From contig JAYWIR010000006.1 of assembly GCA_036172245.1 (NCBI GenBank), positions 4,650,001-4,714,000 of the forward strand: a DNA stretch of 64,000 bases, read 5' to 3'. The translations under genes and the position numbers were made by a program. This document shows positions 15,446 through 63,450 of this stretch, one piece after another (position 1 is the stretch's first letter; every line of letters begins with the position of its first letter). Source of the stretch: Raillietiella orientalis. Taxonomy: Eukaryota. The notes under the pieces are model-generated. The model was not told the origin of the DNA, searched no databases, and saw nothing but the letters and a program-made list of their open reading frames with translations.

Positions 15446-15719
15446 CTGAGCACGACCCCTTTGATCCACGAAAAACAGAACTATATGAGAGCAGTGGAGC
15501 AGATGAGAGCAGCTCATCTCCATGGAAGCAAGGAGGTCGAGCAGTCCCCAGACTCTCCCGATCACCCTTTCTCTCGCAGTCATTTTGCGCCTCCGGAAAC
15601 GCGAAGTCAAAAAGGGGAGGGGAGGGAAGGCAGGCAGGAGAAGAAAATGGCGTCATCGTCGACGGCACATGCGCTTTCGGCTGCGCCTGCCTTCCCTGTT
15701 TCCCACTTCCAGCCTCTCT

Positions 15720-17335: not shown

Positions 17336-17384
17336 CCTTCTGGAGTGAACAAGAAAGAGGTTCCCTTCTAAATCCCCTTCGAAG

Positions 17385-17900
17385 ACAACCAGAGTGCCGA
17401 CTCTTGCCCCCTGAAGTGGCAGGAGTCGATATTTCCGCTGTTGCACCCTGCAACGCACGCCTCCACTACTGGATGCTTTCCGACCCCTATAGGAACGTTT
17501 CGGAACGACCCTCCGGATCGGGTTGGTACCCCCAGAGACTCCTTACGGCTCTTCTTTGTAAGGGACGCCCTGCAGAGAGCCGCAGCCCCAGCAGCGCTTT
17601 GCACCATCCGCGGGATCGGCACAGTCCGGAGCGAAGAAACGAGAGATGTCGTCCACTTAGCAATTCGCTTTCTGCGGATAGCAACCAGATGGCCTCACCT
17701 GGTACCTATTCGAACGGATCTGCATCCTAGGAAGGATGAAGATTCCTTCCAGAGGGCGGTGATCCCTTCCCGATTCTCCCAAAGATTTTTACGTATTTTT
17801 ATTCACTCTTCATATTTTAATTTCCTTTTTGTTTTCCCCCCTCCTCCACCGCTGTCTAGAGGAGCCCCGCCGATCTGCCTACCGGTAAGCCGGCAGATCC
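17385..17900 (+). mobile_element. Tx1-like retrotransposon 3' fragment
   Basis: CCCCTGAAGTGGCAGGAGTCGA and RDVVHLAIRFLRIATRWPHL match the other copies; the T-rich UTR follows. Confidence 0.7.
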
Positions 17901-18055: not shown

Positions 18056-18500
18056 CTAGGATCGTTTCCAGACGATCCTAGAGAGGTCGGAGGGCGGCAC
18101 AGTCCACCAGAAGGTGCGGCAGAGTCTCCTTGTCACCGCACCTTTCTCAGTGGACATCCACACTCCCTCGTGTCCAGTGAGAGAGAGACGTGTTCTGAAC
18201 GGGATTCCCCAATGCAACATTAGCAACACACCTCCTGCCACTTCATGGGGAGGTTGCCACTGTTCCAACACGCTGGGGGTCACTTCACCTCCTCCGGAGG
18301 TAGCGCGAGCAGCCCGCCTCAGAGTAAAAGTCCTTTGGGCTGGACACTCCGGGTCGCAGCGTCCGCTAGCTGCCGAGTTGTCCACGCGTGTAACAGTTTC
18401 TTCCTGCCATTGATGAGGCAGGTCACTTCCCACTTTGTTGGACTGTCGCTGTCCCTAACGTTTTTCAGGGATGGAAGCACTGGGGCAAGGGGATAAACGA
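18056..18500 (-). mobile_element. Tx1-like ORF2 fragment
   Basis: Reverse complement aligns with 14660-15000 (PLAPVLPSL...KWEVT...KKLL.AWTTRQL). Confidence 0.7.
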
Positions 18501-18719
18501 CACTCACAACAGCTTGTGTGGGTGTCGTTGTGTGGGTTCCGCACGATCTCATACAGGGTCTGTCGAGCGAGCCTCCCCCTACAGAGGCAGGAGTATACCG
18601 TAAAAGGAGTGTGGTAGGTCCACTCATCCTACCACAATTTATGAATTTCTTTCAGATTTTAATAAACACCCCGGCGTATCCGGGTGCAAATCGGGGAAGA
18701 AACAAGGAGCGGACCCAAC

Positions 18720-19032
18720 AACCCGGGGGTTCTCTCCGGAGAGAATAAGGAAGAGGAGACAATCAGGGCGAGGATTCCCTTAGGGAATTCTCTACCGAGC
18801 GTTAAAGGAACGGACTCCCTCCGGAACCTTCCTGGATTCATAGGGTGGTGCCTTAGGGGTTGCCACCATAGCTTGAAGAGTCACACGCACCCTCGGGTGA
18901 CGTGGTGGACCGTGCTGAAGAGCTCCGTGGGCCCCTCTGAAAGGAGGCGAACGGTTCTTCAGCAATCCTTGAGAACCAAAAAACCCGAACGGAAAGCAAA
19001 GAAACCACAGGAACGCGAAAAGGATTTCCATT
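18720..19032 (+). mobile_element. 3' half of the long SINE family
   Basis: CTCCGGAGAGAAT...GGAACGGACTCC...TTCCTGGATTCATAGGG...AAGGATTTCCAT is collinear with 61005-61355. Confidence 0.75.
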
Positions 19033-20300: not shown

Positions 20301-21415
20301 CTCTGGTGTGCAGTGAGTGCGCTGAGCAAGTAGGGTCTTCACTGCTGCTATTGGAAAACATCCATTAGAACGTCTAAGAGCGACCATCTATCTGTGTGTG
20401 GGTGTGGGGGGGGAACATACTTCCGCCTACAATGCTTCGCGGAAGCTTTGCACTGCTTGCCATCAGGCAGAGTGACTGCCAACTTTACGGGTAACTCTGC
20501 AGGTGACACAAAGTTACCCCCCCCCCCCAAAAGGCTGGAAAATCCATCTTATAACAGTGTTGCAAACAGGTTCGTTCTCACACTTTCAAAGTTCTTTTTT
20601 TTTTTTTTTTAAGAAAAAAAAAAAAAAGTCGACCAGGGAAGGAAATCACAATCCAGTCTGAATGTGATGCACCGAGTCAAAAGGGCACCGCAACAGATTA
20701 CTACTCTTCGCCTGATCAGACCGAGAGCGAGACTGCGGAGTTTGGTTATCCTAAGGCAATTTTGGAGAATCCAGACTCTGAAAACCCAGCATTCAGCTGG
20801 ACAAGGAGCATTCCAAGTTTTCCCTACGGGAGGTTTCCCGTCTGTTCGATCCTGCGACCGTCTCGTCCGTTTCACACGACCACGCAGGGATGGCCTCGTT
20901 GGCACCGCCGGCACGAAGCCCCGTTGCCTGCGGCGGCAGCTTCTTGCTCGGGCGGGAAACTGGTTTCCGTGGCGTGCCGTCCACTCCTGTGGGCGAACGT
21001 ACTGGGTCTCTTCGAAATCCGGCACCCGAATGCACTGCATTCGGTTGAGCGACCGGAAATGCGAAACTGCGGAACTCGTAACCGACTTTCACAAATCGTC
21101 GGCAAATCCCGGCTCACGGGTTACTGTGAGAATTCCGGGCATCGCACGTGCAAAATCAAATGCAGCCATGACTACACTGCTTCTTCACTTGTTAGCCAAA
21201 CCCAAATGAGCAACTGAGATTCTCACGGACGAGTGAAAACACTACTGTTGGTGCACCAAGACAGTGCTGCTCTTGGTGTACCATTGGGAGGAGGAAAGGA
21301 ATGTAAGGCATTCCTGGTGTAAAGTAGCGAATAGGTTTCCCTATTCAGAGTACCCGAACATAAGCTAGGTGTCCTTTCATTTCAGGGGAGCCAAAGATTC
21401 CACTCCATTTGTAAT

Positions 21416-21738
21416 GGATGATGGAAATCCTTTGGGTTCTTTTTTTTCTTCTATCTTTTTTTCTTCCAGTTTTTTGGTTCGGCAAGTACCTCAAGAGCCG
21501 TCATGTGCCTTGCAGCACATGTAGCTCTTTAACACTGTTCCACACCACTCGCAGAGGGTGTGTGTAATTCTTCAAGATAGGGGGCACCTGGGAAGGGGTC
21601 CACCCTATGAATCCAGGAAGGTCTTGGAGTCCGTTCCTCTCATGCCAGGGGAGGGATCCTCCTCAGAAAGGGGATCACATCTCCACTCAATTTGCACCAG
21701 AGCATTCACTAGGCATCCCTTAATTTTAAGGAAACCAA
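21416..21738 (-). mobile_element. 5'-truncated long-SINE copy with 23-bp target-site duplication
   Basis: Minus strand matches the SINE 3' half over about 21416-21675. Flanked by AAAGATTCCACTCCATTTGTAAT at 21393-21415 and 21739-21761. Confidence 0.8.
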
Positions 21739-22162
21739 AAAGATTCCACTCCATTTGTAATTGCAATCACAGTGCAAAGATTTGCTTTCTGTGTGATGTG
21801 AGTTTCATTATGGAATTGCTGTGCTTTATGTTTGTCAATTTTAACTGTAATTTGTTTGGTGAGCTGCAAGCTGGAACACTTGGATGCATTGTGTTCTCAA
21901 AAGCTGGCACTTGAGAACTTTGAATCTTAAATGCTTTATTGTACAGTATGTCCACTGGCAATATGCATGTTGAAATAGTTAATGTCTTAAATCAAACTGC
22001 AATTGTCATTATCATGAAATTTTTGTTCACATACAAAACTAAATAAAGCTGAAAGTTTTCATCTCTAAAAATTGCAAACACAGGAACAATAGTTCATAAA
22101 TACCAACTTAGAGTTATTTATGGGATACTTAATTAAAAAGAATGCTTCAAGTACACTGCAAT

Positions 22163-27403: not shown

Positions 27404-30400
27404 TCAGCAAGGGAGGGCGCGACAGGAGATCAGGGAGGAGACGATGGAGATGGCGATGGCGATGGCGGAGGGGGAGGTGAGAACTCGGCTGGCGGCGCCC
27501 GTCTGGCGGCACTCCGTCCCGTTGGTTCTCCTGGCGGCGCCGAGGGAGTCGATGGCGCGTATGCACACGGCGCAGGGGGCGGGGCGGAAGATGTGCTCCC
27601 GCGCGTCGTACTCGAGGTCGATGACGACCTCCGAAGGCTCCTCCCTTGGGGAGGCGGGGTCACCGGCTGCCGTAGCGGTGCACGGTAGCGCCGTCAGCCG
27701 GAAGCCGCCCACGTCCGCGTGGGTGGACACGAACCACGTGGCTTCCAGGGAGGAGGCGTCCGTCCTGAGGAGAGGAAAGGAGAGGGGGAGGTTGCCACGG
27801 CAACGCCCGCCCCGCCACGTCCTCTTACCTGCTCAGCTGCCGGAACCGCACGTCGAGCAGCCTGCCAGAGGGTAGGACCCGGCTCGCCTCCTCGGGGCAC
27901 TCCAGTTGGTCTTCGTCCAGGTCGTGCAAGGCGTGGCCCTGCAGGAGCTGAGGCCCGGCGCAGCGAGCGCCCCTCCAGCTCGTTCGGTCCGATCGTCCCT
28001 TCAGCAGGTGAAGCAAGGGCCCCAGCGCGCAGTCGCAGAGCAGCGGGTTGCCTGGAGGGAAGGAGAAAGGTGGTGGTGTGGGGAGGTCAGCCCTCTCAGC
28101 CGGGACTCCCCGACTGAGCGAGGTCACCTCACCTTCCAGGAAGACCTCCACCCCGTCCTGCAGGGCTGCCACCACCTCCCAGACGACGCGCCGCAGCCGG
28201 TTGCCGCGCGCGTCCAGCCGGCGCAGCCTGCCTGAAGTCGGGAGACCCCCCGGGAAGCCCGTCAGGTTATTGTGCGCCACAGAGAGGTCGGTGAGGACCG
28301 GGAGCTTCGACAGCGCCTCCAGCGGAAACGTCGAGAGCTCGTTGTGAGACAGATCCAGGGTGGTCAGCTCGGTGAGATTGACCAGCGCGTCTGTGGAAGA
28401 GCGGAGGATGGAGTCGCGTGCACGCCTTCGAGGTCCCGCCTCCCACCGTGGCCGAGGGAGATGACCTCGTTGTGGCTGAGGTTGAGACTGCGCAGACCGG
28501 ATGTCCCCGCCGACATCTCCCGGCCGACTTCCGACAGCAGGTTGAAGCTGAGGTCCACGTGGCGCAGCCGGTAGGGGACATAGGGATTCCTCGGGAAGCT
28601 CCTGGGGGTGAGGTGGTCCAGGCGGTTGTGGCTGAAGGACACCTGCAGAGAAAAGGCTCCCGCCGGTCCCGCCGAACCGGGAGGGAACGCCCACCTGCTC
28701 CAGTGAGAGGCAGTGCTCCAGGATGCTGCTCGTTCCGTTGTCAATGGACCGCAGCTCGTTGTGGGACAGGTCGAGGGTGGTCAGCGCAGTGAGTCCTGAA
28801 CGAAAAAGGGGTCTGTGCCGGAGATCCTACCCTCCCCCCCCCAACCTACTCCGCCCTCTCCGCTCTCTCTCACCTCGGAAGGCCTCCGGGGTCAGCGACC
28901 TCAGCTCGTTGCGGGACAAGTCCAGTGTCTGCAACTGCCGCAGCCTCTCGAAGGGGCGTTCCTCCAGCGCGCGCATGCCGTTGGACCCGAGCCGTGCCTC
29001 CAGGAGGACCGGGAGGTCGCCGAGGGACTCCCCGGAGAGGCGGGCGATCCTGTTGCCCTCCAAGTCGATCCGCTGGACGCTCTTCAGACCCTGCAGGGCC
29101 TCAGAGGGCACCCGGGAGAGGCCGTTCCCGCGGAGGACGAGATCCCTGAGCACCAACAGGTTGTCGAACGCCCCGGGGGGCAGCGAGTCAGGGCCTCCCA
29201 GCTCGTTGTGACCCAGGTCAAGCGTGAGGAGGGAGTTCATCTGCGGCCACGATCTGGGAGCGAGGCGGGAGATGTGGTTGTGGGCCAGTTGCAGCTCCCC
29301 CAGCGCTGGGGGCGGGTCCACGACCACGCGGAGGCTGTTGTGGCTGAGGTCGAGGGTGCGGAGCGACGCCAGCCTGGAGAAGGACCCGCGGGACACGCGC
29401 CCCAGGCGGTTGTGGCTGAGGTCCAGGAGGAGGAGGGTGGAGAGGGCGCCGAAGGTGGCGCCGGAGAGGGACTCCAGCTCGTTGTGCGAGAGGAGCAGTT
29501 TCCGGACGGCCGCCAGCCCCGCGAGGGACCCCGGGTCGACCCTCCTCAGGCGGTTGTGGCTGAGGTCGACGGTGTGCAGCGAGTGGAGCGCGGGCAGGGC
29601 GCCCTTGGGCAGCTCCTCGATGGCGTTGTGGCTGAGGTCGGCCAGCAGCAGCCCCGGCATGGCGCCGAACGGGACGTCCCTCGCCGAAGCCAGCCGGTTG
29701 TGAGCCAGCAGCAGCTCCCCGACGTCGCTGCTCTCCAACGAGCCGCGGGGCAGCGCGCGGAGGTCGTTGCGGCTGAGGTCGAGGCGAGAGAGGTTGGCGC
29801 AGCGCCGGAAGGAGCCCACTTCCACCAGGGAGATGGAGTTCCCGCTGAGGTCCACGGAGACCAAGAATAGGTCGGAGAAGTCGCCCTCCCGCAGAGCGGT
29901 CAGATTGTTCCCGGATAGGTCGAGCTCCTCGAGGTAGCGCAGGTCGCCGAAGGCGCGCGCGGGCAGCGCGGGCAGCCGGTTCCTCGCCAGGCGCAGCGTG
30001 GCGATCCTGCGCAGTGGGGCGAACGCGCCCGCCTCCACGCGGGCGACGTGGTTGTCGTCCAGGGTGAGCCTGCGCAGCTGGCGGAAGGCGCGCAGATCGC
30101 GGCTACGCAGTTCGTCCACGAGGTTGCCATCGGCGCGCAGTACGCGCAGCAGCGTGTTCCTGGCGAGCGCGGCGCCGTCCAGGCGCGCCAGCAGGTTGCG
30201 GGAGACGTTCAGCCAGATGAGCTTCCCCAGGTCCCGGAAGGCGGCCGAGTCCAGCCCTTCTAGGAGGTTGGACGACACGTCCAGGAACTCCACGTTGCGC
30301 AGGTTGCGGAACACGCCCGGCCGCAGCGCAGAGATGCGGTTGCTGCTGAGGTCCAAGCGGCGCAGCTTCGCCTGACCGCTGAGGTCCGGGACGCCGCGCA

Positions 30401-30929
30401 GCTCCTGGCGCACCAGTGACAGAGACAGCAGGCCGCCCAGCCCGGGGAGCCGGACGGCCTCGGTCAGGCCGCTACCGTTCACCACGAGCTCCTCGAGGGC
30501 GTTCAGTCGCAGCGCCGGGGGCACGTCGCGCAGCTCGGTGTTGACCAGCCGCAGCACGCGCAGCGTCCCGTTGACCCAGGAGAACGCCGCTGGCTCCAGA
30601 CCCGAGACGGGTGTGTCCTCGATGGTGAGTTCGGTCACCGACAGCCACCGCAGCAGGGGGCCGCGCAGGAACCGGAAGCTGTTGCCGCCCAGCTCCAGGG
30701 CGGAGATGGGACGGCGCACCCTCCTCAGGCCGACAGAGATCGAGGCCAGGTTACTCCGCCGGCAGCTGATCCTGAGACCCTTCTCGTTGCCCCCCTGGCA
30801 GACGCAGGGGTGGATGTCCGTGGCGCCGCCCACCGGGCAGGCGTGGTCGGCTGCCGCCGCAACCGCCACCGCCAGGCTGCAGAGGGCGACCAGCAGCAGG
30901 CGACCGTTCGTCTTCGGGGGCGGCGCCAT
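27404..30929 (-). CDS. Secreted/cell-surface leucine-rich repeat protein, chaoptin/artichoke-like, 6 exons
   Basis: ATG at 30929, signal peptide (LLLVALCSLAVAVAAA), Cys-rich LRRNT, many LxxLxLxxNxL repeats, FPRNPYVPYRLRHVDLSFN, LRRCT (GNPLLCDC...RCAGP...LECP), an FN3-like segment and a hydrophobic tail. Five GT-AG introns keep the frame to TGA at 27404. Very GC-rich codons. Confidence 0.9.
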
Positions 30930-31074
30930 CCCTACGGCCGCTCGCGTCCATCCAAGCGCTGGGTAAAGTGGGGTGGGTGGGAGCGGGCGCGTAGGCGGCG
31001 GCCGGAGAAAGCACGGCGCGCACCTCGCATGGGCGCTCCCTCGAAGACCCTGGCGGCAAACGACCATGGTTGGT

Positions 31075-31077
<3 letters not shown>

Positions 31078-31109
<32 letters not shown>
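31078..31109. repeat. (GA)n microsatellite just upstream of the LRR gene start
   Basis: Uninterrupted GA run. Confidence 0.95.
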
Positions 31110-31113
<4 letters not shown>

Positions 31114-33090
31114 GGGGGGGGAGAGGGAGGCAGCGGTCAGGCATCCCGCCCCGTTCCACCCTCACCATCCTCTTTCCCCGCGAGCATCTCCCACGACGAC
31201 ATTTCGTGACGTTTCGGGTCCTTTTGTCACGCAGCGGACGCACAACAGCGCGCGGGCGTCTGCTGTCCGGGGCGGTCTTTAAGGGGGGAACAGGGGAAGT
31301 TCCACGCTCCTCCCGATCCACCCACCCCTGTTGAGCAACGGTGCAAAGGAAACGCCGCGTTTCAAAATCCTCACCGGGAGGAGGGAATGCACGCTTCCAC
31401 GGGCACTCGGAATCGCAAATGGCCTCCGTGATCTGCAGACACCACGGAGGTCGTCAGCGAGCGTGTCCGGTGGCAACCGAAAAATGCAAAGCAAACAGAC
31501 AAACAACAACAACAACAAAAGACACAGAGGGAAGCAAAACCGACTTGACCACAAAATGCACGAGGAGGGAACCTTCTTTGCATTCCTGCGGCAAATCGGC
31601 AGTTCTCCCCTGCCCCACGCTCCCGCGTCTGTTTTCTGCGATCCGATTGCAAGAATAGGAAAGAAAAGAAAGAAAAAAAGGGGGAGGGGAGGGGAGGGGG
31701 GGAGGAAGGAGAAAGAGGGAGGCAAAAACAAAGAGCCGTGCCTCGCGTTTCTTCACAGGTTTCCCATCAAACTAGAGAAAAGAAGCGGAGGGCGCCCACG
31801 ACGGGCTAAGATGCGCCGCGCGCGCGCCCCCCCCCCCCCACACACACACATGCACATGCACACCGTGCCCTCTCTCCCTCTCTCCCGCCACACCTGCCTG
31901 TTGCTTTGGAGACCAGTCAGGAAGAGGCGACGGAAGCGACGGGCATCCCGGCAAGTGCACTTCCAGTCCACGCCACGCGCGCGTCCGACTGCGCGCGCGC
32001 GGTGCGTCCGCTCGCTTTCTCCGTGACCCGCGCCCGGAGTGATTGGGCACGAACTGAGCCTCCATTTCGAGCATGACCGCAGGGTGACGCAAACGCCTGA
32101 CCGTTGGTCTCGCACGCCCGACTCAAGGAAAAATCGTTTTTGAACACGGTCCGCTGGCGAGCGGGAGTATTTGTCATTCTTTCCGTATTGCCGGTGAGAA
32201 AGAAAGAATGTAAGGTGAAAAGGAAGAAAAAAAATTGGAAACGTTCGAGCAAAGTGTTCTGCTGGTCAGGGGGGCGCGCGCGTGCTCGCGGTTTCCGCCG
32301 AATGATTCCGAGTATGCTGAGAATTCGGCAAGGGTTCACGCGTTTCCCCCCCCCCCCCAAAAAAAAAAAAATTGGCTCTCGGGCAGAAATTTGTCGAATT
32401 TCATCTTAAGAAAGGAGATCTTAGGCAATCGGTTGATTCCCTCCCTCCTCGCCCCCCCTCCTTCCTCCCTAGCCCTCGGGCACTCGTTTCGCACGTTCCG
32501 TTTGGACCGGCTCGAGCCTGCCCTTTGAAATCCTGCAGCTGCAGGTGTTTTTCGCATCGGGTGGGTGTGCCGGGAACTGCTCCCGTGTTCCCGGCGAACG
32601 CGGACGGTGCCACGCGCGGGCCGAGGAAACATTTCCAACGCGCCAGTAAATAAATCGGGTAAATGCGGTCATCTGGGAAGGGATGCGAACGGACTCGAGT
32701 ATTTGGAATGGGCGAAGAAAGGCCCGGAAGGCTCGATTCCCTGAGGTGCTGAAGCGACGGGCGTGTCGCCGACGCATCTCCTCCACCGCTCGGCAAAAAG
32801 CACACTTCCAGGAGGAACGTCTCCTCAGATGCGCGTGAATTCGGAGACTCCGTTTCTTTTCCCTTCCAGAAGTGCTCGCTTCCCTTTCGAGGGCTGGCAG
32901 GAGATGTGGCAAACAACAACAACGACAACGAGGAAACCACTCGCATGCGTTTTCCATGCACGTCAGTTACTCTTCAGCCAATCTGCCGATTCAGCACGCA
33001 TTTCCGTTACTCGCCAAAGAACGAAAACGGGAAATTCGGCGTCACTGCGCATTTCGCGTGTGAGATGGAAAGAGAGAGAGAGAGAGGGAG

Positions 33091-37649: not shown

Positions 37650-40588
37650 TCAAGGATCACAAACCAATCTACTAAGATCCATGTACCAACCATTCTCTTG
37701 AGACAGACGGTTTTTAATTTTCCGCATTAGGAAGGGTATTTTTTCATGATCTAGCATTCTGTTCCATCGGTTTAAATTTAGTGGCACTACCAAAATGCCC
37801 TCTGCTTCCAGATTACGTAAATCAAGGACCACTGGTCCTTTAATACGGTTGCCATTATGCAGGAGGTGATGGCGATGTATACACAGAATACCCACTCTGA
37901 GAGATTTGCAAATGCACAGGGTAAATGTATAATCAATGAGTACATACCTGTGATAATCTGAAAGATGAATATCTTGCAATGAAAAAGAATCCTGGAAATT
38001 GATTCTGGTAAAAGGGACAGGATCATATCCACGAGAGTATAGCAACAGATGGTCTGGTATAAAAATTGAATTAAAAAATCGTTTTACATGCAAAACAATC
38101 GGGGAACATGCTATGACATGACAAAAATACAGGCATAGGAATCCACTTATGATATAAAGTGACCAGATTCAATGTTTTTTGGTTCTGAATGCAATCCTGT
38201 AAATTTCGAAGTCACTGATTAATTCCAACTATTAACAATACTCGAATTCACTCAATTCACTCATTCATTAATGTGTGGGTTGCAATGAAATTGTTAGAAA
38301 ATAGCCCTTTCTAAACATTACGAAAGCCTGCTTTCTCAAGCAGGAATTATCACTAGCACTGACAAATTGCAAATGATAAAAAGACTCGAAGTTAATAAAA
38401 AAAATTGAATACACTACGGATAAAAATAAAAAAATCCATGATTCTTGATGAGGCCTCTGAATTTCTTCAAAATACAAGGAAAAGTACTAGTTGCTACTTT
38501 AATTACACATTCAATCACACGTCCATCAAAAAATTAGTCCTAGAGCAAGCAGACATGACTAACAAAATTACCTATAAATATTCCTAATTGACTGCAGACA
38601 CCAGATCTTACATAGTCTGCTGACTCCAAAACAGAATTCAGAGCATATTTCAAGGAATCTGATGGAAAATGATAAGGTGCAGCCTTTTCAGTCATTTGCA
38701 AAAGCTCTGAAATGCCACTATGATAACTGCAACCATGAGCAAGCATAGTCTGGTGCATTTGCAGGATGCGCCAAAGTTGTCCAGTTGGTACTAAAACATA
38801 AACAGAATCTCATGACAAGTGATTGTACTCTTACAATCACCAGATCTAAATGCTGAATAGATCTTATCAAAATACATTTGAATCAGTTCACAATCGAAAA
38901 CTCCTAGTATGCCCAAATCTTGTGCCAGAGTTAGTTTTCCTATATCCACCAAGTGCTACTGTAAAGGTAATAACACACAATGCATATGAGAACTGCAGAG
39001 CACCTTACGTAACTCAGTTTCTTGAATTTTTTGTAACAACTCATCAAAACCACATGGCTTATATCCAACAAGAGAAAATGAGTGAATAGCAGCAATCAAG
39101 CACTGCAAATCTCTCACATTTTGAATACTAGAGTGCACCAACACCTTGCACAGGTAATCCAAAAGATCAGTATTCAAATGTTGCTACAACAATGCATTAA
39201 TTTTGCCATTGGAGATATACTGACCATATAGCAAATTTGTAATGCAATACTGCATGCTACAGATAATCCTAATTCTTCCTTAACCACTTTATTACTAACT
39301 ATATCTAAAAAAATTCTGTTATAAAAGAGGCTCCGATGTTTTTTTCCTGCATGCATTGCCTTCTGCAATGCTTTTATTACTTTCCTGATATCAGTGGCTG
39401 ATATACAATCAGCAGATGTTATTAGTTGTTCAAACACTAGATGCAATAGCCATTCTTGGTTTTCAGAAAGCTGCTCATAATCAGACAACGATTGCACAAA
39501 ATTCACTGCTTCAAAAGGTTTCACTCTAAGATCATGCTTAAAAATACAAGCAATTAGTTTGTCAATTTTCTCAGCAGATATTCGAGCAGACAAAGCATAT
39601 CTCAAAAGTGGAAAAAGTTCTATTGGTTGTTCATAGTAGAACTCATTCTCTAATTTAATTTCAAATACCAAAGGAATTGCTTTCTTCAAAGCTTCTGTTA
39701 AGGGACAGACATCTAATTTATCCATAACTAATCCCAAGTGGACCAACTGTTGCAAACTTAGTGAATTTATTTCATGACGCACCATCTGAAGAAGGCCTTG
39801 AATCAAAGGATTTTCTGTTGGTATTTTCAAATATGGCACCATTTTTAATAAATCTACTACTTCGCTACTTCCGAGAAAGCAAAGTTTTTTTTGTAACTGC
39901 TGGCAGAGCCTAATGAATGTTTCAGGAAACTCTGGTTGTTGCTTGTATACTGCACTTTCACTTAAAAGAAAAACAAAACCAAACATTTTTTTGCAGAAAC
40001 GAGAGGTCCCGCACATTAATTTATTATCTAATTCCCTCAGAAAAGCATTCATTATGCACACGTTAACACTTTAAAAACAGCATGCTAATGACCAAACAAA
40101 TTTATGCTTCAATACCTATCAGTTTTGGAGATTTCATTTAGAAGGGCGAATGCTTTAAACAAGTGTTGACTATTCATCGTCTGACGATGATTTTCTATTA
40201 GTTCAAACAACTTATCAATGGTTTTTACTTCCTGTAATGAATTCATTAAAGCATCTTGTTCAAGACCGGGATGGCCTAACTCTGAAAAACAAAGCTGTGT
40301 GAAAACAACAAATTTATGTATAGAGTTTTACTTCATACATGTACGTTAGAATGCATATTTCAAGCTAATAACATGATAGCATTTTCAATACTTTCATAAA
40401 CAAATTACATTAACACAGATTGCAAATCCATAATTACTTAATTTTCGTCGTACTTTTTTTTAAACCTATACAACACAATTACCTGCTTTGTTACTTCCTG
40501 AAACATAGGAAAGCTTAAAGATTCCGAGAGGAGCGAAATACTCAAAGCGAATTGTGCATCGTTTGCAGATTGACACATTTAATGCCAT
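37650..40588 (-). CDS. FASTKD1: FAST kinase domain-containing protein 1-like (mitochondrial, C-terminal RAP domain), about 8 exons
   Basis: Exons read DALMNSLQEVKTIDKLFELIENH..MNSQH; LLQMVRHEINSLSLQQL...PLTEALKKAIPLVFEI; LGIFIDHLLL; and RAP-like GPVVLDLRNLEAEGILVVPLNLNRWNRMLDHEKIPFL. Short GT-AG introns keep the frame. The start codon and exon 1 are less certain. Confidence 0.8.
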
Positions 40589-41925
40589 AATATTTCTTAT
40601 AGCTCTTAGAGCTGTATTCATCACAAATACTTCACTTAGCTCCACTACCGCAAAATATCTTTCGCACGGTGCGAAAATTCAGGCAGTACCAAATTTCCAT
40701 CCAACAGTGTTTTCAATGCATAATAAGGATAAGAATTAGTGTGCCAACATGGTATATTAAAGACGATTAGATTTAAAATTGCTTACAAAAATGTTCGAAA
40801 ATTCTCCTGAGAGCTGCAAGGGAATTCTGTCAACACCGAGTGTCAATATTGATTTCTAAACATTGTTATATTTTGCACATATGAAATGTTTCCTTGTTTT
40901 TGCTTTGTTCTTCAGCTCAGTAATATTTAGATCAAAACACTGTACTATTTAAAAAATATTTATATAACTCAAAATTCTGCACCCTAATTGCACTTGGCAA
41001 TGAAAGGGACAATTTTCTTCAGAACATATGAAGATTCTAGGAACCATCATTCACTCTGGTGCACAACAACGATTCTATTCATCCTTCACGAGACAGAAAA
41101 CCGTGCAAGGGAGACATGGCCAAGTGACGCTTACAGGACGTGAGCCCTCCTGCACGAGCAGTAGGAGGCAAAGGAGGCCGGCCCGGAGCAGCGAGAAGTC
41201 CATTGTAGCTGTGAGTCAGTTCTAGAACGGGATGGAAGAACTGAGCCGCACGGGCACGCTCTGCAGAAGCACAGGTTGCTTCACGCTCCTCATCCGTCCC
41301 GCATCCCGCATCTATCAGCAAGTGAAGGGAAGTCCTGCACAGCAGAAGGCAGACCGCAGTCCGGAAGACAGACAAAGCTCCTCGGAGGCGGTCGAGCTCC
41401 ACGAGTAGATCGAGTGCGAGAAGATACGGCAGCAGAGACGCTTCCTTTTCCACAGGAAAGGAGGAATACATAAAGGTCCCAAGCACGGAATCCTTTCACT
41501 TTGTAGCCGAATCATCATCTGCCTCGAGTTGTTGCGCAACGCGTATAGAAAAAGCCCGACGACTGTGCCCAGCTTGTGCCCCCGCACGCCTGCCTTGGTG
41601 GCTTGCGTGAACTCTTCTAGACGTGTGTATCCTGACAGGATGGGTAGCTGCTTCCCATTTCCGAGTACTGAGGGAGATACTGAGAGCATGTGTGCAAGAA
41701 GGTGTAGTCGACGATAGCGCTCTGGCAGTGTGGGCGGACTCGACCCTCTTGGCTTTGTCCGTGAGCGCTCGGAGTTACCTCATGCCTTGTGCTGGGGGGA
41801 AGTTTTGGCCCTTAGTGTACGGGAAACGGAGGAGACGCTGCCTTCTAAAGACAGGGGTTGCCTTTCAGGCGGACGGCAAGCTGATCTCGCGAGCCTCTTC
41901 GTAGAACACCCTTCTTCGTAGAACA

Positions 41926-42778
41926 GCCCGCGTCAGAGGCCTTCTGGTTAAGGCTTCCGCGGGTGGCACCATGCGTCGCGGGTTCGAATACTTCGGCAGA
42001 TAACTGACGCCACTCCGTCGTTTGGGTTCCGAGTTTCTCCTGCAACGGCGCTGGTTGGCCGAGACATTCGGGCGTGGCACCGGCGGTGGATAAAGCCGGC
42101 GGCCTCCCGATGAAGGCCGGAACAATGGGAGTCGACCTTCGGGTCCTCCCAGGAATAAAGGAGTGGGGAGTTCCCCCTCCTGTGTGCAAAGGAGAGCGGA
42201 CCCCCGTCACCGGGGGACCGCCTCCGGTTTCAAGATGGAGCAGGAGCCCTCACGGGCACCTCTCCAGTTGTTCAAAGGGGCGGACCCCCTGTTGGGGGGT
42301 CCCTCCGAGTTGTCGCCTCTCCAGAAGAGTGCAAGGAAGCAAGCGAGAGCGATCCCCCTGCAGGAAGCTGCAGGGCCCCTTCTGAGTTTCGGGAGCATCC
42401 CTTCGGGGGTTGTCTTCAGAGGAGTGAATAAAGGAGCGGTTCCCTTGCGGGTTCCCTCCGGAGAAGAAATTCCTACAAGCGGATCCTTTCCGGGTTCCCT
42501 TCGGAGAAGTTGAAATGGAGAGGACACCACCCCATTAGGGGGGGGTGCTCCTCCGGAGAGAATGAGGAAGGAGATTCCCTTCGGGGTTCCCCTTCGGAGA
42601 CAACCAAGGTGGGAGGTGCGATCCCCCCGTCCAGGGAGGATCCCTCCCCAAGCGTGGGAGGAACGGACTCCGAGCCCTTCCTGGATTCATAGGGCGGACC
42701 TCCATCCCGGGGTGCCCCCTATCCTGAAGAATTACACGCCCCCCTGCGGGTTGCCGTGGGTGGAGGGGCGTGGAAACA
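41926..42778 (+). mobile_element. Long tRNA-derived SINE copy, 5' complete, 3' truncated, 15-bp TSD
   Basis: Head GGCCTTCTGGTTAAGG (A-box-like) and GGTTCGAATAC (B-box-like). Aligns with 60430-61235. TAGAACACCCTTCTT occurs at 41902-41916 and 42779-42793. Confidence 0.85.
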
Positions 42779-42859
42779 TAGAACACCCTTCTTGACACGG
42801 ATCCTTCTACCGCGTTTTCTTTCCTCTGATCCTACCGAACTTCGCGACCCATATTCTTT

Positions 42860-44059: not shown

Positions 44060-44350
44060 GCCACGAGGCTGCATCCTCCGCGTGTGGCACCGAGCGTTGC
44101 GGGTTCGAATTTCCAAGTGGAGGATCGACGCCAGAGAAATAAGTGCGCCGCGGGTTCGAGTTCCCCCCTCAAGAGAACGCTGGTTGGTGCACGGACTTGA
44201 AGTGCGGCACTGGTGGAAGCCCAATGCCCCCCACTGAGTGGCCGGATTGGGAGTTGACCATCCAGGAATCAAGGAGTCGGTTCCCTCCAAGGTTCCTTCC
44301 CAAGAGTGAGAGGAACGGATTCCTTCCTCTGGAGCTCTTCCTGGATTTTG
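44060..44350 (+). mobile_element. Short, diverged member of the tRNA-derived SINE family lacking most of the middle hairpin block
   Basis: TCCGCGTGTGGCACC...GCGGGTTCGAATT head, CCAGGAATCAAGGAG, then a direct jump to CCTTCCCAAGAGTGAGAGGAACGGA...TTCCTGGATT. Confidence 0.7.
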
Positions 44351-44727: not shown

Positions 44728-45450
44728 GTTTGACACCCGGTTCCGCCAGGGCATTTATTTATATAAAATAAACACACACGTCTGTGGCAGGACGTTCGAT
44801 CTTGCGACGTTACTTATGAATACGAGAAGGAACCTGCCGAGAACCGGCACGCAAGGCAACGGGGTCTCCTCGGCAGCACAGGGGAAGGGGAGACAAACAA
44901 AAAGAAAAAATAAAACAAAAAGCATACAATCAAAAAACGTGGGGATGGTTCGGGAAGGGATCATTGTTTGCTGGAGGGTGTCCTCTGCATCCTTGTAAGG
45001 ATGCCCGCAAGTTCCTGTTTCACTGTTTCCAGATGGGGCGATCTTGACGCTGTGCTTAAAAACAGGGCCACAAAATACATGGCGTCCTTGTCGTTCAGGC
45101 CTTCTCTGGCGTTGCACCATTTCGGTCACGGTCGCGCTGCGTGGCACAAAGTGCTTCTGGGGATGCGGCCGGCGTGATGGCGTCACGCTGGAAGGGGCGC
45201 TTCAAATCGTCTTTGGAGTTGTCCCACAGTGATCCGCAGGGATGCGGAAAAGAGTTCCCACAAGGGATTGAGGGCAAGACAATCCATGGGCAGGTGCGTG
45301 AGAGATTCTCTTTCTCCGCACCCGCTGCAGTTCGGGCTCACCTCCTCCCCCGGCTCCAATGATGTGCCACGCTGGAGTGGTGGGTTCACACGAATGTGTA
45401 ACAAGCGGCGTTGAATGCTGATGTGGGGTCCTACCACAGGAGACCACATG
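44728..45450 (-). mobile_element. Tx1-like retrotransposon 3' fragment
   Basis: PNCSGCGERESLTHLPMDCLALNPLWELFSASL, shared UTR, terminal AATAAATGCCCTGGCGGAACCGGGTGT. Confidence 0.82.
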
Positions 45451-56991: not shown

Positions 56992-58119
56992 CACGTGACC
57001 GGCAACTCCCTCGTAGTACACTCAACCAACCACCACCGGTACTTCCGCGTGTCAGAGTGATCGAAGCACGTGGACGTGCCAAGCAGCATGGGAAGGCGGA
57101 GAAGACGCCCTGCCTGCTCAGAAGTCAACTAAATGGATTGTGGCCGTAATTTTCAGCCCCCCTTTTCCCCTGCTCTTGCTGATTTTTTGTTCATTCCTTT
57201 GCATTCGCGAGTCCACGAGAAACCTCTATGAGTTGGGGGAAGAGTAATTAGCAGTTAACCTCAAGAGCAGTGATTCTTCCGATTTAATGAATTCCTCCTC
57301 CCAGGCAAAGCTCCATCGGCAGTGGAAATTTGGGCATTATTCTTGCGCACGTGGCAAAATACCCCTTTTCTGATTAGGGAAGGAACCCTCATTCCTTCAT
57401 TTACCATTTTTTGCACGTGGTTGGACCACCGGTTCAATCACAGAGATGATGATGATGATTTACCATGTTCCCACATCCCCGGAAAGGTTGAAAACGGGAG
57501 CCAAGAACTCTCACAGGTCGGCATTGCAAAGCTGAAGGCTCTGTTTGGAAATGAAAATAGTACAAATGCATAAAGTGGACAATCATGAAGGATAAAGCGA
57601 TATTCAAAAAATGAACTATGCAATGTAGAATCTACAGAGACCTTTAAAAATAAAAAAATAAATAAATAAAAATACAGTACACGGATCGGTAAAGGAATTT
57701 CTAATACAACTTTATTTAACTTCATTGCGATGTTTTGGCATCGTCTTGTCGTATTATGTATCTCATGCCTTCATTTCATGCCTTTTCCATCAAAGCACGG
57801 CTTCAGTTTATGTGGAAAAATCACTGGAAATCCCTAGCACGAAAAAGTATACGGGAAAAACGTGTCAGCACGCAAGATGAAGTTTTTGATGAGCCTAAAA
57901 AAAAAACAGCAATTCTGAATTCGATTCCTGGATGCCATCTCTTGAAACCGGAAGAGAATCATGATCGGCATGGCGTCTGTGGCCATCTGGTCTCTTGTCG
58001 CCGAAGCTTCTAGCTGACCACTCGAGGTCACGTAAGCATCGCAAGCTACGATCGACGCTCCACTGGTGAAGAGGCGTCCTAGCATGTCTTTCACTTTGTC
58101 CCTTGGGAATCAGAAGGTT

Positions 58120-58870
58120 TATCTCCCGGATTTCCGGGACACTTATCATTAAAATAATACAGATACAAGTAATGTGTCCAAGTGCTGAAACACTTAGTGT
58201 ACCACGTAAGTCCAGCTTGCCATTCTCCGGTACGGAGAACGTCGAGGTCCGCTGTCGTGGAGAAGGGAGAGGGGGAACCACAAAAAACAAGCAAACAAAA
58301 AAGCCAAGAAAAAAGCGGAAGGGAAATGTTCCTTGGGGAGGGAAGAGCGTGGAAGGGATTACATCACGCCGGGAAACGTCCTCTGCGTCCCGTCCTGGAT
58401 ACTGACTAGTGGTGTTCTCATATTGTCCAGGTAGAACCATCTTGAGGCGGTCTTCAAAAAGATCTGCTCCCAGTGGATGACATCCCTGACTCTTCTCCCC
58501 GGGTTCTAGGCTGCCACGATTTCGCAGACTCAGCGAGGGACGCAGCTGGCGGGAGAGTGGCATCACGCAAGAAGAAGCGTCCAGAAATTATCCCTATGGT
58601 CGCCTCCCGGAGTTTCTAGGATCGTCAATCGCGTTGCCTCTTGGAAATTGGAGGGTCGCTCGTTACGAGCGTTTCCAAACACTTCAGAGGGTGCAGCAAA
58701 GTTTCCTTTTGCCCGCACATGGGGCCATGCTTCCTCTGAACTCCAGTGGTGACGGGGTGCGTTGCACGGGATGGACCAATGCGGGAATCGCGGCGCTGAG
58801 TCCTGCTGCTTGAGGGGAGGCAGGAAGCTGTCCAAGCAAACCTCGGGGACTTCCACTTCCTTCGACGGGA
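58120..58870 (-). mobile_element. Diverged Tx1-like 3' fragment
   Basis: GPMCGQKETLLHPLKC zinc-finger remnant, then VIPS, a T-rich UTR and a CCCGGAAATCCGGG terminal hairpin. Confidence 0.65.
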
Positions 58871-58879
58871 TTCCAAGTT

Positions 58880-61800
58880 GAACCTCACCCAGCAGGAAGT
58901 CCTTTGGGAAGGGCGACGGGGGTGGAAGCCTCAGTCAGCTGACCCGCGGTCCAGCAAGCCCAGCAGTTTTTCCTATCCTGAGGTCTCGCAGGACACCTGC
59001 CAACTTGCCAGTCGTCTCTGTCTCTGCAGTTCCTCCAAAGGAAGGACAGCGGTGCAGCAAGTGGGTTTTTTTGTACCCACGAGGTCTTCCTGGAGCGTTC
59101 CGTGATATCTCCCAACAAGCGGTGAGTGCGATTGGAGCACCGCAGGCACTGCGTCTCTTTTAACCCTTTCTGCCTTCGCGCCCACGCACCCAGCTCTTTC
59201 CCGTTTCCAGACCCTACAGTTCCTGGACGAGGAGGAGATCCAGGCGTGGTTTTGCGCGCCAAGGCAACAACCTGCCAAAGCCCTCAGGGGGGGGCAGTCT
59301 CGGAGGTTGTAAACGAGGACCGAGGGCGAGTCCCTTCAGGATGGCTGCTCGAGTGGCAGAGGAATCGAGATGGGACGCATCGACGGTTGGTCCAGTATTT
59401 CGCTGCCGGTGCGAGCCGTCTGAACTGCAGCTGGCGTTCCATCCGAGGCACTCGGGACCTCCATTTTCCCCAAAGGGCAATCCTGCGGAAGTTCTTCGTC
59501 TGCTTTCTGACCCTCTCCGGTGCGGGGGGGAGAGGTTCTGAAGTGAGCAGGGAGAAGTCGTCCGCTTACACAGCTGGTGCAGCGTGGTCTGGGAGGCTGA
59601 ACTGGGTCCGCTTGGGAATCCCCATGGTCAGGTGCTTTGAGCATCTCGGTGCATCCTTGGGGATTTCTCCCAGTCTGAGACCCACGGTACAGTGTCTCCG
59701 GAAAGAAGAGCCGGACCTCGGCCCGTTCCAAGATGGCAGATTCCCCTTGCCGGAACGGGTCGTCATATCGAACCCTTTTGTGACTCCATCCTCCGCCTCT
59801 TGCCTTTTTTGCTCCCTACCCCCCAAAAATAAAAAGTGAACCAAGGACCTCCTGAGGAAAGTCTTTGAGGGAAGGGCAGAGGTCGCGTTCCCACTTGGGG
59901 GACTTGTGGGCACTTTGCCGTGATGGTGGTCTTGGCCTCCGGGCGCTGAAGCAACTGAAGTTGCAGATCCAGTTCCAAACGCTTACCCTCGTGGCAGAGA
60001 TGTGATGCACCACCTGGCGCGAACCTGCGCACCTCCTCGTCCAGCAAGCCACCGGCAGCGTGAGACTCGCATCCTTCCTTGCGCGCCGTCCACTCATTTT
60101 CATCCACAGACGGACTGCACCTTCGGTGGGCGGCCACGCTGGCTAGGAAAAACGGATGGATCTGGTGCCGCCCCACGAAGGGTAGTGCCTGGTTGCAGGA
60201 AACCGTTCACACGTGAACGAGGAGCCAGGAGCCAAGCGCGAAACAGGTGCGACATTCCCTGTACGGGCCCTACAACAACTGCACGCTCCGGGAGATCCTT
60301 GAAGATCCAGGGAAGAGTGTGAACCTCCCTCGCTACCGCTCTGCCCTCCCTGAGGGAACACATGGGCAGCATCCTTGCGGCTAGATAGGAGGTTACTGTA
60401 GAAATCTCCATCAGGAGAAGAGGACTGTTGCCCGCGTCGGAGACCTTGTGGTTAAGGCTTCCGCGTGTGGCACCATGCATCGCGGGATCGAATACTCTGG
60501 CAGAAACTGACGCAACTGCGTCGTTGGGTTCCGAGTTTCTCCTGCAATGGCGCTGGTTGGCCGAGACATTCGGGCGTGGCACCGGTGGTCGTTTAAGCCA
60601 GAGGCCCCTGATGAAGGCCGGAACAATGGGAGTCGACCTTCGGGTCCTTCCAGGAATCAAAGGAATGGGGAGTTCTTCCTCCGGTCGTACAACGGAGAGC
60701 GGACCCCCTTAGCGGGGGTACCCTTCCGGTTTCAACATGGAGCAGGAGCCCTCACGGCACCTCTCCAGTTGTTCAAAGGAGAGGACTACCTGTTGAAGGG
60801 TCCCTCCGAGTCGTCGCCTCTTCACAGAGTGTGCACAAGGAAGCAAGCGGGAAGCTGCAGCGCCCCCCTGCTTGAGTTTCGGAAGCGTCCCTTCGGATTT
60901 CTCTTCAGAGGAGTGAACAGGAGCGGTTCCCTTCCGGATTCCCTTCGGAGAAGTTGAAATGAAGTTGAAATGGAGAGGACAGCCCCTCCCCATTGGGGGG
61001 GGTGTCCCTCCGGAGAGAATGAGGAAGGAGATTCCCTTTGGAGTTCTCCTTCGGAGACAACCAGGGTGGGAGGTGGGTGCGATCCCCCCATCCGGGGAGA
61101 ATCCCTTCCCAAGCGTGAGAGGAACGGACTCCGAGCCCTTCCTGGATTCACAGGGCGGAACCCTCCTTCCGGGGTGCTCTATCCTGAAGAAAAGAATTAC
61201 GCCCCCTTGCCTCAGGCGGAGAGGCGTGGAAACAAAACAGTGTGTTCAAAAGGGCCACGTGCGCCGCGAGGCACGCGACCGGCTCTTGAGGCTCACTTAG
61301 CAAACCAAAACAAAGAAAACCCGAAGAAAAAAAAAAAAGAACCCAAGGATTTCCATCATCCTAGGCCAATAGTAACGATCCCCTCGCGGGGTCGCTACTG
61401 GCCTTTAGAAAAAAAAAAAAAAAGAGGACTGTGCGAGTGGACGACGGGCCGGCTTACAGACGCTGAGACAACGAGTGCCCAGCCCCGAGGACTTTTGCTC
61501 TGGGGTGAACTCTTGGATATTTCGGAGGAAGATCTGCAGTGGTTCCCAGTGCTTTTGGACACTCGTGCCCTCCCTTTAAAGTGGCAGGAGTTGACGCTGC
61601 TGCTGTTTCACTGGGGCCTGCCGTGCATCACTGGACACGAGGGTGCGTGGACCCCCCGAACTGTGCCAGGTGTGGGAGGCGGAAAACCGTTCGCACCTGC
61701 TTGTGGACTGTGTTGCCCTCTGGTTCCTCTGGGAACGCTTTGCCGCGACCCTAGGAACCCCTAGTGGCAACTCCAGGGACTCTCTGAAACCTCTCTTCGT

Positions 61801-62245
61801 TAGCGCCGCCCTTTGGTCCTCAGCCTCGCTAGCAGCCCTCTGCTGCCTACGCGGGATTGTAGCGGACTGAAGCGACGTAAGAGGAGGGCACAGCGACAGG
61901 GATGCCACATTAAGATGGCCCCATCTGAAGAGCAGGATGCAACAAGAGCTTGCTGGCATCCTCGACAGGATGTAGAGGGACCGCCCCCAGCAGAACGTGA
62001 TCCCTTCCCTCATCCATCCCCAAGTTTATTTATTTTCATTTTTTTTGTTCCTTTTTTTTGTTGTTGTTTGCCCCCCCCCGCCTCCCCTTCCTCTTCTGCC
62101 GCGACTGAGCTCACCGGTCTGCGTAACGGTACCCCGACAGGCTCCCGTTAAATTGCACATGGTTGGACCACCAGTTCAATCACAGAGATGATGACTGTTT
62201 CTTTTTTTATATATATATGGAATAAACTCCCCGGTGCACCCGGGT
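58880..62245 (+). mobile_element. Longest Tx1-like copy (decayed RT through 3' end), interrupted by a SINE
   Basis: RT remnants LASRL...QQVGFFVPTRS and REKS...LGIPMVRCFEHLG...GRFPLPERVVISN, then the zinc-finger region at about 61630-61750, the UTR and terminal AATAAACTCCCCGGTGCACCCGGGT. Sequence on either side of 60429-61421 is contiguous by comparison with 15730-15900. Confidence 0.8.
60429..61421 (+). mobile_element. Full-length (~1 kb) tRNA-derived SINE with terminal hairpin, poly(A) and 11-bp TSD
   Basis: AAGAGGACTGT at 60418-60428 and 61422-61432; A/B-box-like head; A-run immediately before the second TSD; no protein homology seen. Confidence 0.88.
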
Positions 62246-62384: not shown

Positions 62385-62570
62385 AACACCAGGGACTTCA
62401 ACACTATTCCCGCCACGCGTGTTGACTCTTCGAGTTAGGGGTTTCCTGGGAAGGGACCACTCTATGAATCCAGGGAGGCTCCGGAGGAAGGAGTCCATTC
62501 CTCTCTTGGGAAGTAACCCCGAAGGCAACATTCCACCCTGGTTGTCTCCGGAGGGACCCCTTGGAAGGAG
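62385..62570 (-). mobile_element. Long-SINE 3' fragment
   Basis: Reverse complement GGAGACAACCAGGGTGG...CTTCCCAAGAGAGGAATGGACTCC...CTGGATTCATAG matches 61053-61200. Confidence 0.7.
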
Positions 62571-62574
62571 CCAA

Positions 62575-63450
62575 GACGATGGGGCGGACGTCTCTGCCTC
62601 ATCTCTTATCGCGCTTGGCTCCTGACTCCTCGCCCACGTGCGAACGGTTCCCTGCAACCAGGCGCTCCCGCTCGCGGGGGGGAGGGGGACAGGAGATCCA
62701 GAGGATATTCTTCCTGGCCAGGTGGCCACCTGCCGAAGGCGCGGTTCGCCATGGATGAGGCTGCGAGGACGGCGCTCAAGGAGAGACACGATTCCCACGC
62801 TGCCAATGACTTGCTGGGCGAGAAGGCGCGCAGGTTGGTGCTCGGTGGTGCTCCACATCTTTGCCACGAGGACAAACGTCCGCAACTGGGGCTGCAGCTC
62901 CAGTCGCTCCCGTGTCGAGACAGGCCTAGACCGCCGTCCCGGCGAGGAGTGAACAAGACTCGGGCCTCCCTTTGCCCCCAAGAGCGATCCGGAGGAGGTC
63001 CTCCGTCCGCTTTCTGATGCTGCATGGCGAAGGAGCAAACAAAAAGCAGGGGTCAGAGGAGGAAGGCCACGAATGAGTTTTGCAGGACAGCTCGTCCCGG
63101 AAGGAGGAATCTGCCATTCAGAAACGGGCTGAGCGTCGATTCTGCCTTTTGGAGGAAACAGGACCAGCCTGTTGTTGCGCAGAAGTTTCTCAATGAGATT
63201 CCCAGGTACTTCAAGCACCTGATCGTGGGGATCCCCAAACAAATCCAGTCCGGTTGCCCTGCCCGTGCCTCACCAACGGGAAGCACAGTCGCCGACTTAG
63301 TCCTGTTTCTATGCACAGCAGCTTCTCGGTGGATCAGATAGAGGGATTCCTCGAGCGATGCTGTCGGGGCTGACATGGTTGACAGGACCACCTTCAGGGA
63401 GGCGCAGCAATCTGTACGTGGGCATCTGATGGCCAAGCCAGGAGCTCCTG
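62575..63450 (-). mobile_element. Tx1-like ORF2 fragment (RT C-terminus and thumb)
   Basis: NRTKSATVLPVG...LGIPTIRCLKYLGISL...W..FLQKAE...GRFLLPGRAVLQNSF...RRDGGLGL; reverse complement aligns with 59550-60250. Confidence 0.78.

Follow-up and report, generated by a model that had tools for sequence, protein, structure and literature searches.

What kind of element could have placed almost 1 kb of non-coding DNA inside a long interspersed element (LINE) of Raillietiella orientalis is the question raised by the locus described here. The locus lies in a stretch of 64,000 nt (assembly GCA_036172245.1, contig JAYWIR010000006.1, positions 4,650,001 to 4,714,000 of the forward strand), which was analyzed as a whole and is called the window below; all coordinates refer to it (cf. 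Table 1). An original prediction, made by inspection of the letters, had interpreted 60418-61432 as a full-length copy of an unusually long, hairpin-packed, tRNA-derived short interspersed element (SINE) inserted into a Tx1 copy. The findings presented below led us to conclude, with moderate confidence, that the insert (copy 1) is a full-length copy of a family of non-coding, non-autonomous, SINE-like retroposons of about 1 kb that belong to the class without long terminal repeats (non-LTR).

The boundaries of the insert were given by its flanks. Its 993 nt (60429-61421) are enclosed by two exact copies of AAGAGGACTGT, a target-site duplication (TSD). Exact matches to this motif occur twice in the 64 kb, while 0.02 were expected from shuffled sequences and none of 100 shuffles reached two. 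At a spacing of 993, the window contains only one exact repeated 11-mer; 24 other spacings gave six such repeats combined. The host-repeat flanks on both sides of the insert belong to one repeat family, and a paralogous copy of this repeat holds a single ACGAAAACTAG-type stretch without interruption. Since the paralog is uninterrupted and carries the duplicated stretch only once, 60429-61421 is a true insertion with a TSD, confirmed by a paralogous empty site. The element is also non-coding: none of its eight open reading frames (ORFs) matched Pfam, and many single-base insertions and deletions separate copy 1 from another family copy (copy 2). The predicted 993-nt non-coding insert between direct repeats was thus borne out by the exact TSD, the empty site and the ORF search, and all strings quoted in the original prediction were found in place (60449-60458, 60485-60495, the terminal hairpin and the poly(A)).

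Relatives of the insert were sought in the window by sensitive blastn and by nhmmer with a profile built from the two best copies. The latter method yielded seven loci, the insert itself included; the original prediction had given about seven relatives in 64 kb. Three copies are well preserved and occupy three unrelated targets, and the four older pieces show 66-80% similarity to them. Copy 2 starts at the same GCCCGCG as copy 1, so that both window copies reaching the 5' region (2/2, a small sample) share this 5' start, each of them adjoining its own flanking repeat; a common 5' boundary, on which the predicted family depended, was therefore recovered. The body of copy 2 contains an additional sub-repeat block of about 32 nt, and the copy ends without poly(A), with GGAAACA at the start of the A-rich region, where copy 1 goes on with AAAACAG. 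It is flanked by TAGAACACCCTTCTT at 41902-41916 and 42779-42793, and a 9-nt filler, CGTAGAACA (41917-41925), separates the upstream 15-nt repeat from the element start. This filler repeats target sequence, and an alternative description of the same flanks is a 7-nt TSD, TAGAACA, adjoining both ends. Copy 3 ends at CCATCATCC, without the terminal hairpin and poly(A), and is flanked by an exact 23-nt direct repeat at 21739-21761 and 21393-21415. Within this arrangement (21393-21761, minus strand), 61 nt lie between the upstream 23-nt repeat and the element; they were judged by eye to be about 65% like the downstream flank, and a simple TSD does not account for them.

The 3' part of the element varied among the copies. 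Position 806, at which the alignment with copy 2 ends, is spanned by the 18677-19032 copy and likewise by copy 3; therefore, both the A-rich region and the GGATTTCCAT module are parts of the family element rather than a second insertion. The terminal hairpin followed by poly(A), predicted as the end of the element, is present in copy 1, but it is not family-wide, since copies 2 and 3 end earlier and lack it; the hairpin is also missing from the 18677-19032 copy. Relatives were also seen in contigs from a sequencing run, apparently of DNA (X1; share of words 0.05), which may represent the source sample or a close relative and so is not independent support; X1 was the only run listed as sharing words with the stretch, and no RNA run was among the holders. 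In this run, 108 contigs, which are fragments and not copies, matched 60430-61389 at a likeness of at least 80%; 4, 9, 37 and 58 of them fell into the identity bands of at least 99%, 95-99%, 90-95% and below 90%, respectively. The match of one contig breaks off precisely at 60430, beyond which its sequence is unlike; one (61219-61389) leaves the A-rich part and enters the terminal hairpin; and another departs into unlike sequence right after A12 (loose end 61340). Scans of public metagenomes with two conserved patterns of the element found 0 loci for each. The family is multi-copy, with copies of differing age.

The copies are demonstrably insertions that bear the marks of LINE-type target-primed reverse transcription: TSD-like flanking duplications of 11-23 nt (in all three well-preserved copies), an empty paralogous site, poly(A), a 5'-truncated copy (one of the three) and tailless or 3'-shortened copies (two of the three lack a poly(A) end). 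The build is SINE-like: the head is followed by a GC-rich body, an A-rich region and a 3' module, and poly(A) closes the element. In copy 1, whose length is 993 nt, or 979 nt if the tail is not counted, the terminal hairpin has a minimum free energy (MFE) of -22.5 kcal/mol (z -3.6; 1 of 200 shuffles folded equally well) and is followed by TTAG and then by A13, which merges into the AA of the TSD. As judged from its sequence, the tail of copy 1 is not a poly(A) of the RNA polymerase II (Pol II) type, since no AATAAA precedes either A run of this copy.

The head was the part on which the predicted tRNA origin rested, with a GTG at the anticodon position taken to suggest tRNA-His. ARAGORN with default settings reported no tRNA in the whole window, and at -ps80 it found nothing in the heads of copies 1 and 2, though it made 69 calls in the window. 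Rfam gave 0 matches at the gathering score for the whole window and, at E<=10 with queries of 1301, 201 and 84 nt, no tRNA, 5S, 7SL or other RNA of the RNA polymerase III (Pol III) class; the 84-nt search reported matches down to 2.6 bits. The matches listed at E<=10 were at chance level, namely mir-185, serC and others for the element and Ms1, MIR2629 and HOTTIP_3 for the heads. In its MFE fold, the head forms a 5' hairpin in which GCCCGCG pairs with CGCGGG, with a z of only -1.0 to -1.4. When the head was read by hand, no stem could be drawn around the GTG, as positions 27-31 and 39-43 do not pair. The descriptions "tRNA-derived" and "tRNA-His" were accordingly not upheld, and a tRNA origin of the head is possible rather than demonstrated.

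A second set of observations concerned internal promoter motifs. The sequence GGTTCGAAT, which we take to be the core of the box B consensus, occurs twice on the two strands of the 64 kb, both times at the same head position of family copies (copy 2 and the old copy at 44075). Copy 1 is one base off this sequence; most X1 contigs read GGTTCGAAT, with T at position 60487 in six contigs (depth 26.7 of 37.1). The motif TGGTTAAGGC lies 26 nt upstream of the box-B-like motif in copies 1 and 2, and, measured from the shared 5' end, the box-A-like sequence starts at about 12 nt and the box-B-like GGTTCGAAT at about 56 nt. As for the boxes expected in other copies, GGTTCGAAT is present in copy 2 and in the 44075 copy, and TGGTTAAGGC is present in copy 2 but missing at 44075. 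Furthermore, TTTT runs are absent from copy 1 (992 nt) as well as from copy 2 (853 nt); a first-order Markov model gave chances of 0.034 and 0.095, respectively, for this absence. In the part of the SINEBase description that deals with SINE recognition, boxes A and B are not regarded as proof of SINE identity (PMC3531059). The box-like motifs and the absence of TTTT hint at Pol III transcription, as indications only and not as proof.

Several observations weigh against reading the insert as a SINE-like retroposon, or against parts of that reading: (i) no similarity to a tRNA or another Pol III RNA was found by ARAGORN or Rfam; (ii) two occurrences of GGTTCGAAT are not rare per se, as 13 of 100 shuffles gave at least two, and only their head position is telling; (iii) the A-box-like motif fits the consensus only loosely and is missing from the old 44075 copy; (iv) the absence of TTTT is only modestly unusual, given that 9 of 90 GC-matched 1-kb strand tiles also lack it; (v) Pol III products of about 1 kb would, to our knowledge, be exceptional; (vi) the window contains a single full-length copy that carries hairpin and poly(A), and each of the three good copies ends differently on its 3' side; (vii) no LINE in the window shares the tail of the element; (viii) for copy 1, folding of the antisense strand (z -4.4) is no weaker than that of the sense strand; and (ix) the covariation term is unfavourable (+1.36 for the best-sampled 200 nt, five sequences), with a compensated change in 4 of 24 pairs. 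The last two points bear on the predicted "hairpin-packed" structure. Folding of the whole element was indeed better than that of shuffles (z -2.4 for copy 1 and -3.7 for copy 2), but the antisense fold is equally strong and covariation gives no support. Because the antisense folds as well and the covariation is unfavourable, we regard the element as palindrome-rich and sub-repeat-rich DNA, not as a demonstrated functional RNA fold.

The explanation closest to the original prediction is that the family is a genuine tRNA-His-derived Pol III SINE, the longest known, in which the hairpin body and the terminal hairpin are functional RNA structures. It would account for box-like motifs at a tRNA-like spacing near the 5' end, for copies 1 and 2 being free of TTTT, and for terminal-hairpin and whole-element folds that surpass shuffles. 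We nevertheless consider it unlikely, since very lax thresholds revealed neither a cloverleaf nor a tRNA profile match, an anticodon stem could not be drawn, the antisense strand folds equally well, the covariation term is unfavourable, and copies 2 and 3 as well as the 18677 copy lack the terminal hairpin.

The host repeat was analyzed as well. In five copies, the 3' end of the host LINE is made up of AATAAAC, followed by a CCCGG/CCGGG hairpin and then by GTCAAAC, and has no poly(A); this end motif occurs five times, with 0.01 occurrences expected. A CX2CX7HX4C motif is readable in translations of host-repeat 3' copies, and one of nine frames (from three 3' copies) gave a sub-threshold match to zf-RVT in one host paralog (E 0.005, 17.9 bits, cut-off 27.5). 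This match fits the C-terminus of an L1/Tx1-type ORF2, and the Tx1 label given to the host is unconfirmed. No reverse transcriptase or endonuclease Pfam domain was found in three read-through frames of 57001-60428 (3.4 kb upstream of the insert), and a Pfam search of 34 ORFs near the host LINE gave one chance-level match only. Local alignment of the tail of the element with the five host LINE tails did not exceed shuffles (P 0.36 for the maximum and 0.23 for the sum).

The second alternative, which we hold to be improbable to about the same degree as a tRNA-His SINE, is that the family is a Pol II-transcribed, internally deleted LINE derivative, in which a 5' untranslated region (UTR) was joined to a 3' UTR, which was mobilized by its parent, and in which the box-like motifs are coincidental. 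SIDE, HAL1 and RIME-type elements are examples of such internally deleted derivatives. A length of about 1 kb, beyond the range of SINEBase, would be typical of them, small-RNA similarity would not be expected and none was found, and a 5' truncation like that of copy 3 is common in longer retroposons. What speaks against this explanation is that none of the LINE sequences of the window is similar to the head, body or tail, that GGTTCGAAT has been retained at its place in the head of a far older copy, and that no AATAAA stands before the A runs of copy 1.

Much less probable still is that the copies are retropseudogenes derived from a structured non-coding RNA of the cell, about 1 kb long, an alternative that the original prediction had also named. 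Such an origin would suit the common 5' end, the variable tailless 3' ends and the hairpin-rich sequence; it is disfavoured by the lack of an Rfam match, by seven loci of differing ages in 64 kb together with many related contigs, and by copies that vary in sub-repeat number and are 19% apart, which are better explained by self-propagating lineages than by descent from a single conserved gene. Least credible of all are 5'-truncated 3' ends of an ordinary LINE, given that both copies that reach the 5' region have the same 5' end and no coding continuation was seen, or an LTR element or DNA transposon. LTR elements have TG..CA ends and a TSD of 4-6 bp; they and DNA transposons were ruled out by the poly(A), the flanking repeats of 11-23 nt and the absence of terminal inverted repeats.

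Returning to the favoured SINE-like, LINE-mobilized retroposon, we propose the following course of events. The source copy would be transcribed by Pol III from its internal head or, failing that, by Pol II or by read-through; a Pol III start is suggested by the sequence of the head and is nearly as likely as not, and we put it forward only tentatively. The transcript would run through the TTTT-free body to the A-rich 3' part, and a LINE that presumably tolerates A-rich or internal priming sites would supply, in trans, the endonuclease and reverse transcriptase with which the RNA is copied; such a tolerance would explain the three different 3' ends. Target-primed reverse transcription on the A-rich 3' part would yield the 11-23 nt duplications, incomplete copying would give 5'-truncated copies such as copy 3, and priming within the A-rich region or at other sites would give tailless, 3'-shortened copies such as copy 2. 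In the latter case, priming seemingly took place inside the A-rich GGAAACAAAACA, where the microhomologous target AGAACA could pair with AAAACA of the element. A more far-reaching version, which we regard as rather doubtful, holds that the family is a true Pol III SINE of about 1 kb whose hairpin-dense body would have been kept free of TTTT to let Pol III pass through and whose head would have diverged from a tRNA until a box B and a D-loop remnant were left.

In terms of known elements, SVA, HAL1, R2 SIDEs and RIME are composite or LINE-derived non-autonomous retroposons of 0.5-2 kb. The present family resembles them in its size class, its variable sub-repeat number (copy 2 compared with copy 1) and its mobilization in trans with TSDs, whereas in the window no parent LINE, Alu, LTR or other known module is recognizable for it. 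We conclude that the family functions like a SINE and is unusually long; since non-autonomous retroposons of 0.5-2 kb are known, it does not represent a new kind of mobile element. Tailless retropseudogenes, which are LINE-mediated, internally primed copies without poly(A), provide a parallel for copies 2 and 3, which likewise have no poly(A) yet possess direct repeats, and the end of copy 2 is microhomologous to its target; unlike retropseudogenes, copies 2 and 3 are members of a repeat family and not copies of a cellular RNA.

A comparison with catalogued SINEs was based on the sections of the SINEBase description that cover definition, size and structure. According to them, 175 SINE families measure 75-662 nt (mean 253), and the size limit appears both as a working criterion of "<1 kb" and as a definition of "<700 bp" (PMC3531059). 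Relative to these figures, the present element, with 979 nt without and 993 nt with its tail, lies just below 1 kb and above both 700 bp and the 662-nt maximum. The element family is interspersed, non-autonomous and of LINE-type insertion, as in the definition given there. Similarity to small RNAs is set in the same source at an identity of at least 60% to tRNA, 5S rRNA or 7SL RNA over at least 60 nt (PMC3531059); we assessed it by ARAGORN and Rfam as proxies, which were both negative and are not a literal measure of identity to a tRNA set. With the commonest SINE build outlined in these sections (PMC3531059), the family shares non-coding sequence, interspersed copies, a head, body and tail, box-like motifs near the 5' end, TSDs, a poly(A) end and dependence on LINE machinery; it differs from that build by its length of about 979 nt, by a head without measurable tRNA similarity or cloverleaf, and by heterogeneous 3' ends. 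A further point of reference is SINEU of crocodilians which, in the portion of the report that treats its mobilization, is described as moved by Tx1-Mar LINEs and as having a strict target preference in common with the LINE (PMC4494074). The proposed dependence on a Tx1-type LINE and the many 5'-truncated copies of SINEU make it similar to our family; unlike it, our family has its three good copies in unrelated targets and a head that is not like a small nuclear RNA, and the Tx1 identity of the host is unconfirmed. A full-text search of the literature, which was not made by organism, revealed no SINE that combines a length of about 1 kb with a tRNA-like head. The comparison with catalogued families was made against SINEBase, and an entry for the present family may already exist in Repbase or Dfam.

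If the family were indeed a Pol III SINE of about 1 kb, it would be about 50% longer than any SINEBase family and would raise the upper size limit of retroposons driven by Pol III. It would also offer a natural case in which to ask how SINE length is constrained by Pol III processivity, by terminator avoidance and by LINE-mediated copying, and up to what length Pol III transcripts can be mobilized by LINE machinery. On the more modest reading, its description serves as an annotation aid, since, without it, so dense a family (seven loci per 64 kb of an animal genome) would go unclassified or be taken for gene structure. In addition, the three different 3' ends among the copies serve as an example of a LINE reverse transcriptase priming internally and leaving no tail.

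Table 1. Coordinates of the insert, its relatives and the host repeat in the 64,000-nt window
Feature	Position	Strand	Remarks
Left TSD AAGAGGACTGT	60418-60428	+	exact match
Extra single T between TSD and element start	60429	+	missing in copy 2 and in the right-hand TSD context
Head, begins GCCCGCG	60430-60500	+	folds as a 5' hairpin, not as a cloverleaf
D-loop-like TGGTTAAGGC	60449-60458	+	string quoted there in the original prediction: GTGGTTAAGG
Box-B-like GGATCGAATAC	60485-60495	+	26 nt downstream of TGGTTAAGGC
Body	60501-61234	+	GC-rich, hairpin-rich, non-coding
Degenerate 27-nt sub-repeats in body	60888-60914, 60928-60954, 61033-61059	+	
11-nt tandem repeat in body	60950-60972	+	
A-rich region	61235-61338	+	includes internal A12 run 61327-61338
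3' module GAACCCAAGGATTTCCATCATCC	61339-61361	+	GGATTTCCAT also in copy 3 and in the 18677-19032 copy
Terminal imperfect hairpin AGGCCA...TGGCCT	61363-61404	+	within the window only in copy 1
Terminal poly(A)	61409-61421	+	no upstream AATAAA or ATTAAA
Right TSD AAGAGGACTGT	61422-61432	+	exact match
Paralogous empty site (host-repeat copy)	15716-16010 (aligned 15716-15808 and 15818-16010)	+	contiguous over the insertion point
Family loci found by nhmmer (seven, counting copy 1)	16979-17396, 18677-19032, 21402-21684 (-), 41926-42781, 44075-44348, 60430-61420, 62424-62560 (-)		
Copy 2	41926-42778	+	81% identity to positions 2-806 of copy 1
Copy 3	21416-21684	-	5'-truncated, about positions 650-933
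Old diverged copy	16979-17396	+	profile positions 57-696
Old 5'-truncated copy	18677-19032	+	profile positions 570-990, A-rich end
Old internally deleted copy	44075-44348	+	perfect GGTTCGAAT at 44102-44110, no TGGTTAAGGC motif
Old fragment	62424-62560	-	profile positions 668-822
Host repeat, multi-copy LINE 3' region	32-695, 6766-7322 (-), 14903-15438, 15716-16340, 18090-18685, 44735-45045 (-), 60329-62245		

Two further arrangements of repeats were noted around the host LINE and the family. At 18661-18700, a host-type LINE copy runs to its exact 3' terminus and passes without a gap, and in the same orientation, into the 5'-truncated family copy at 18677-19032. This junction arose either when one element inserted into or next to the other or when template switching produced a chimeric retrocopy, and the latter would hint at a partner LINE. 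The host LINE fragment with its insert is bracketed by an inverted pair of about 525 bp with 70% identity (59717-60241 and 62609-63133), which probably represents two copies of another repeat in opposite orientation.

Elsewhere in the window, a leucine-rich-repeat gene with a GC content of 66-68% was recognized at 27825-31136 on the minus strand. Its start is signal-peptide-like, its N-terminus LRRNT-like and its end LRRCT-like; a stop or an intron interrupts it once, near 28826, and it has its best matches among arthropod chaoptin or artichoke-like proteins, with only 26-30% identity. A 298-aa open frame at 39177-40070 (minus strand), unlikely by chance in a stretch of 35% GC, looks like a helical-repeat protein; it gave no Pfam match above threshold and no homologue among longer proteins, and it leads to FAST_1/RESC6-type families that are carried by only 10-30% of the cluster members. 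The composition of the window is strongly patchy, with repeat-rich stretches of 52-68% GC and islands of 33-41% GC at 22-24, 38-40 and 52-56 kb. The observed/expected ratio of CpG is 0.91 overall, which means that CpG is not depleted, and 0.47 at 52-56 kb.

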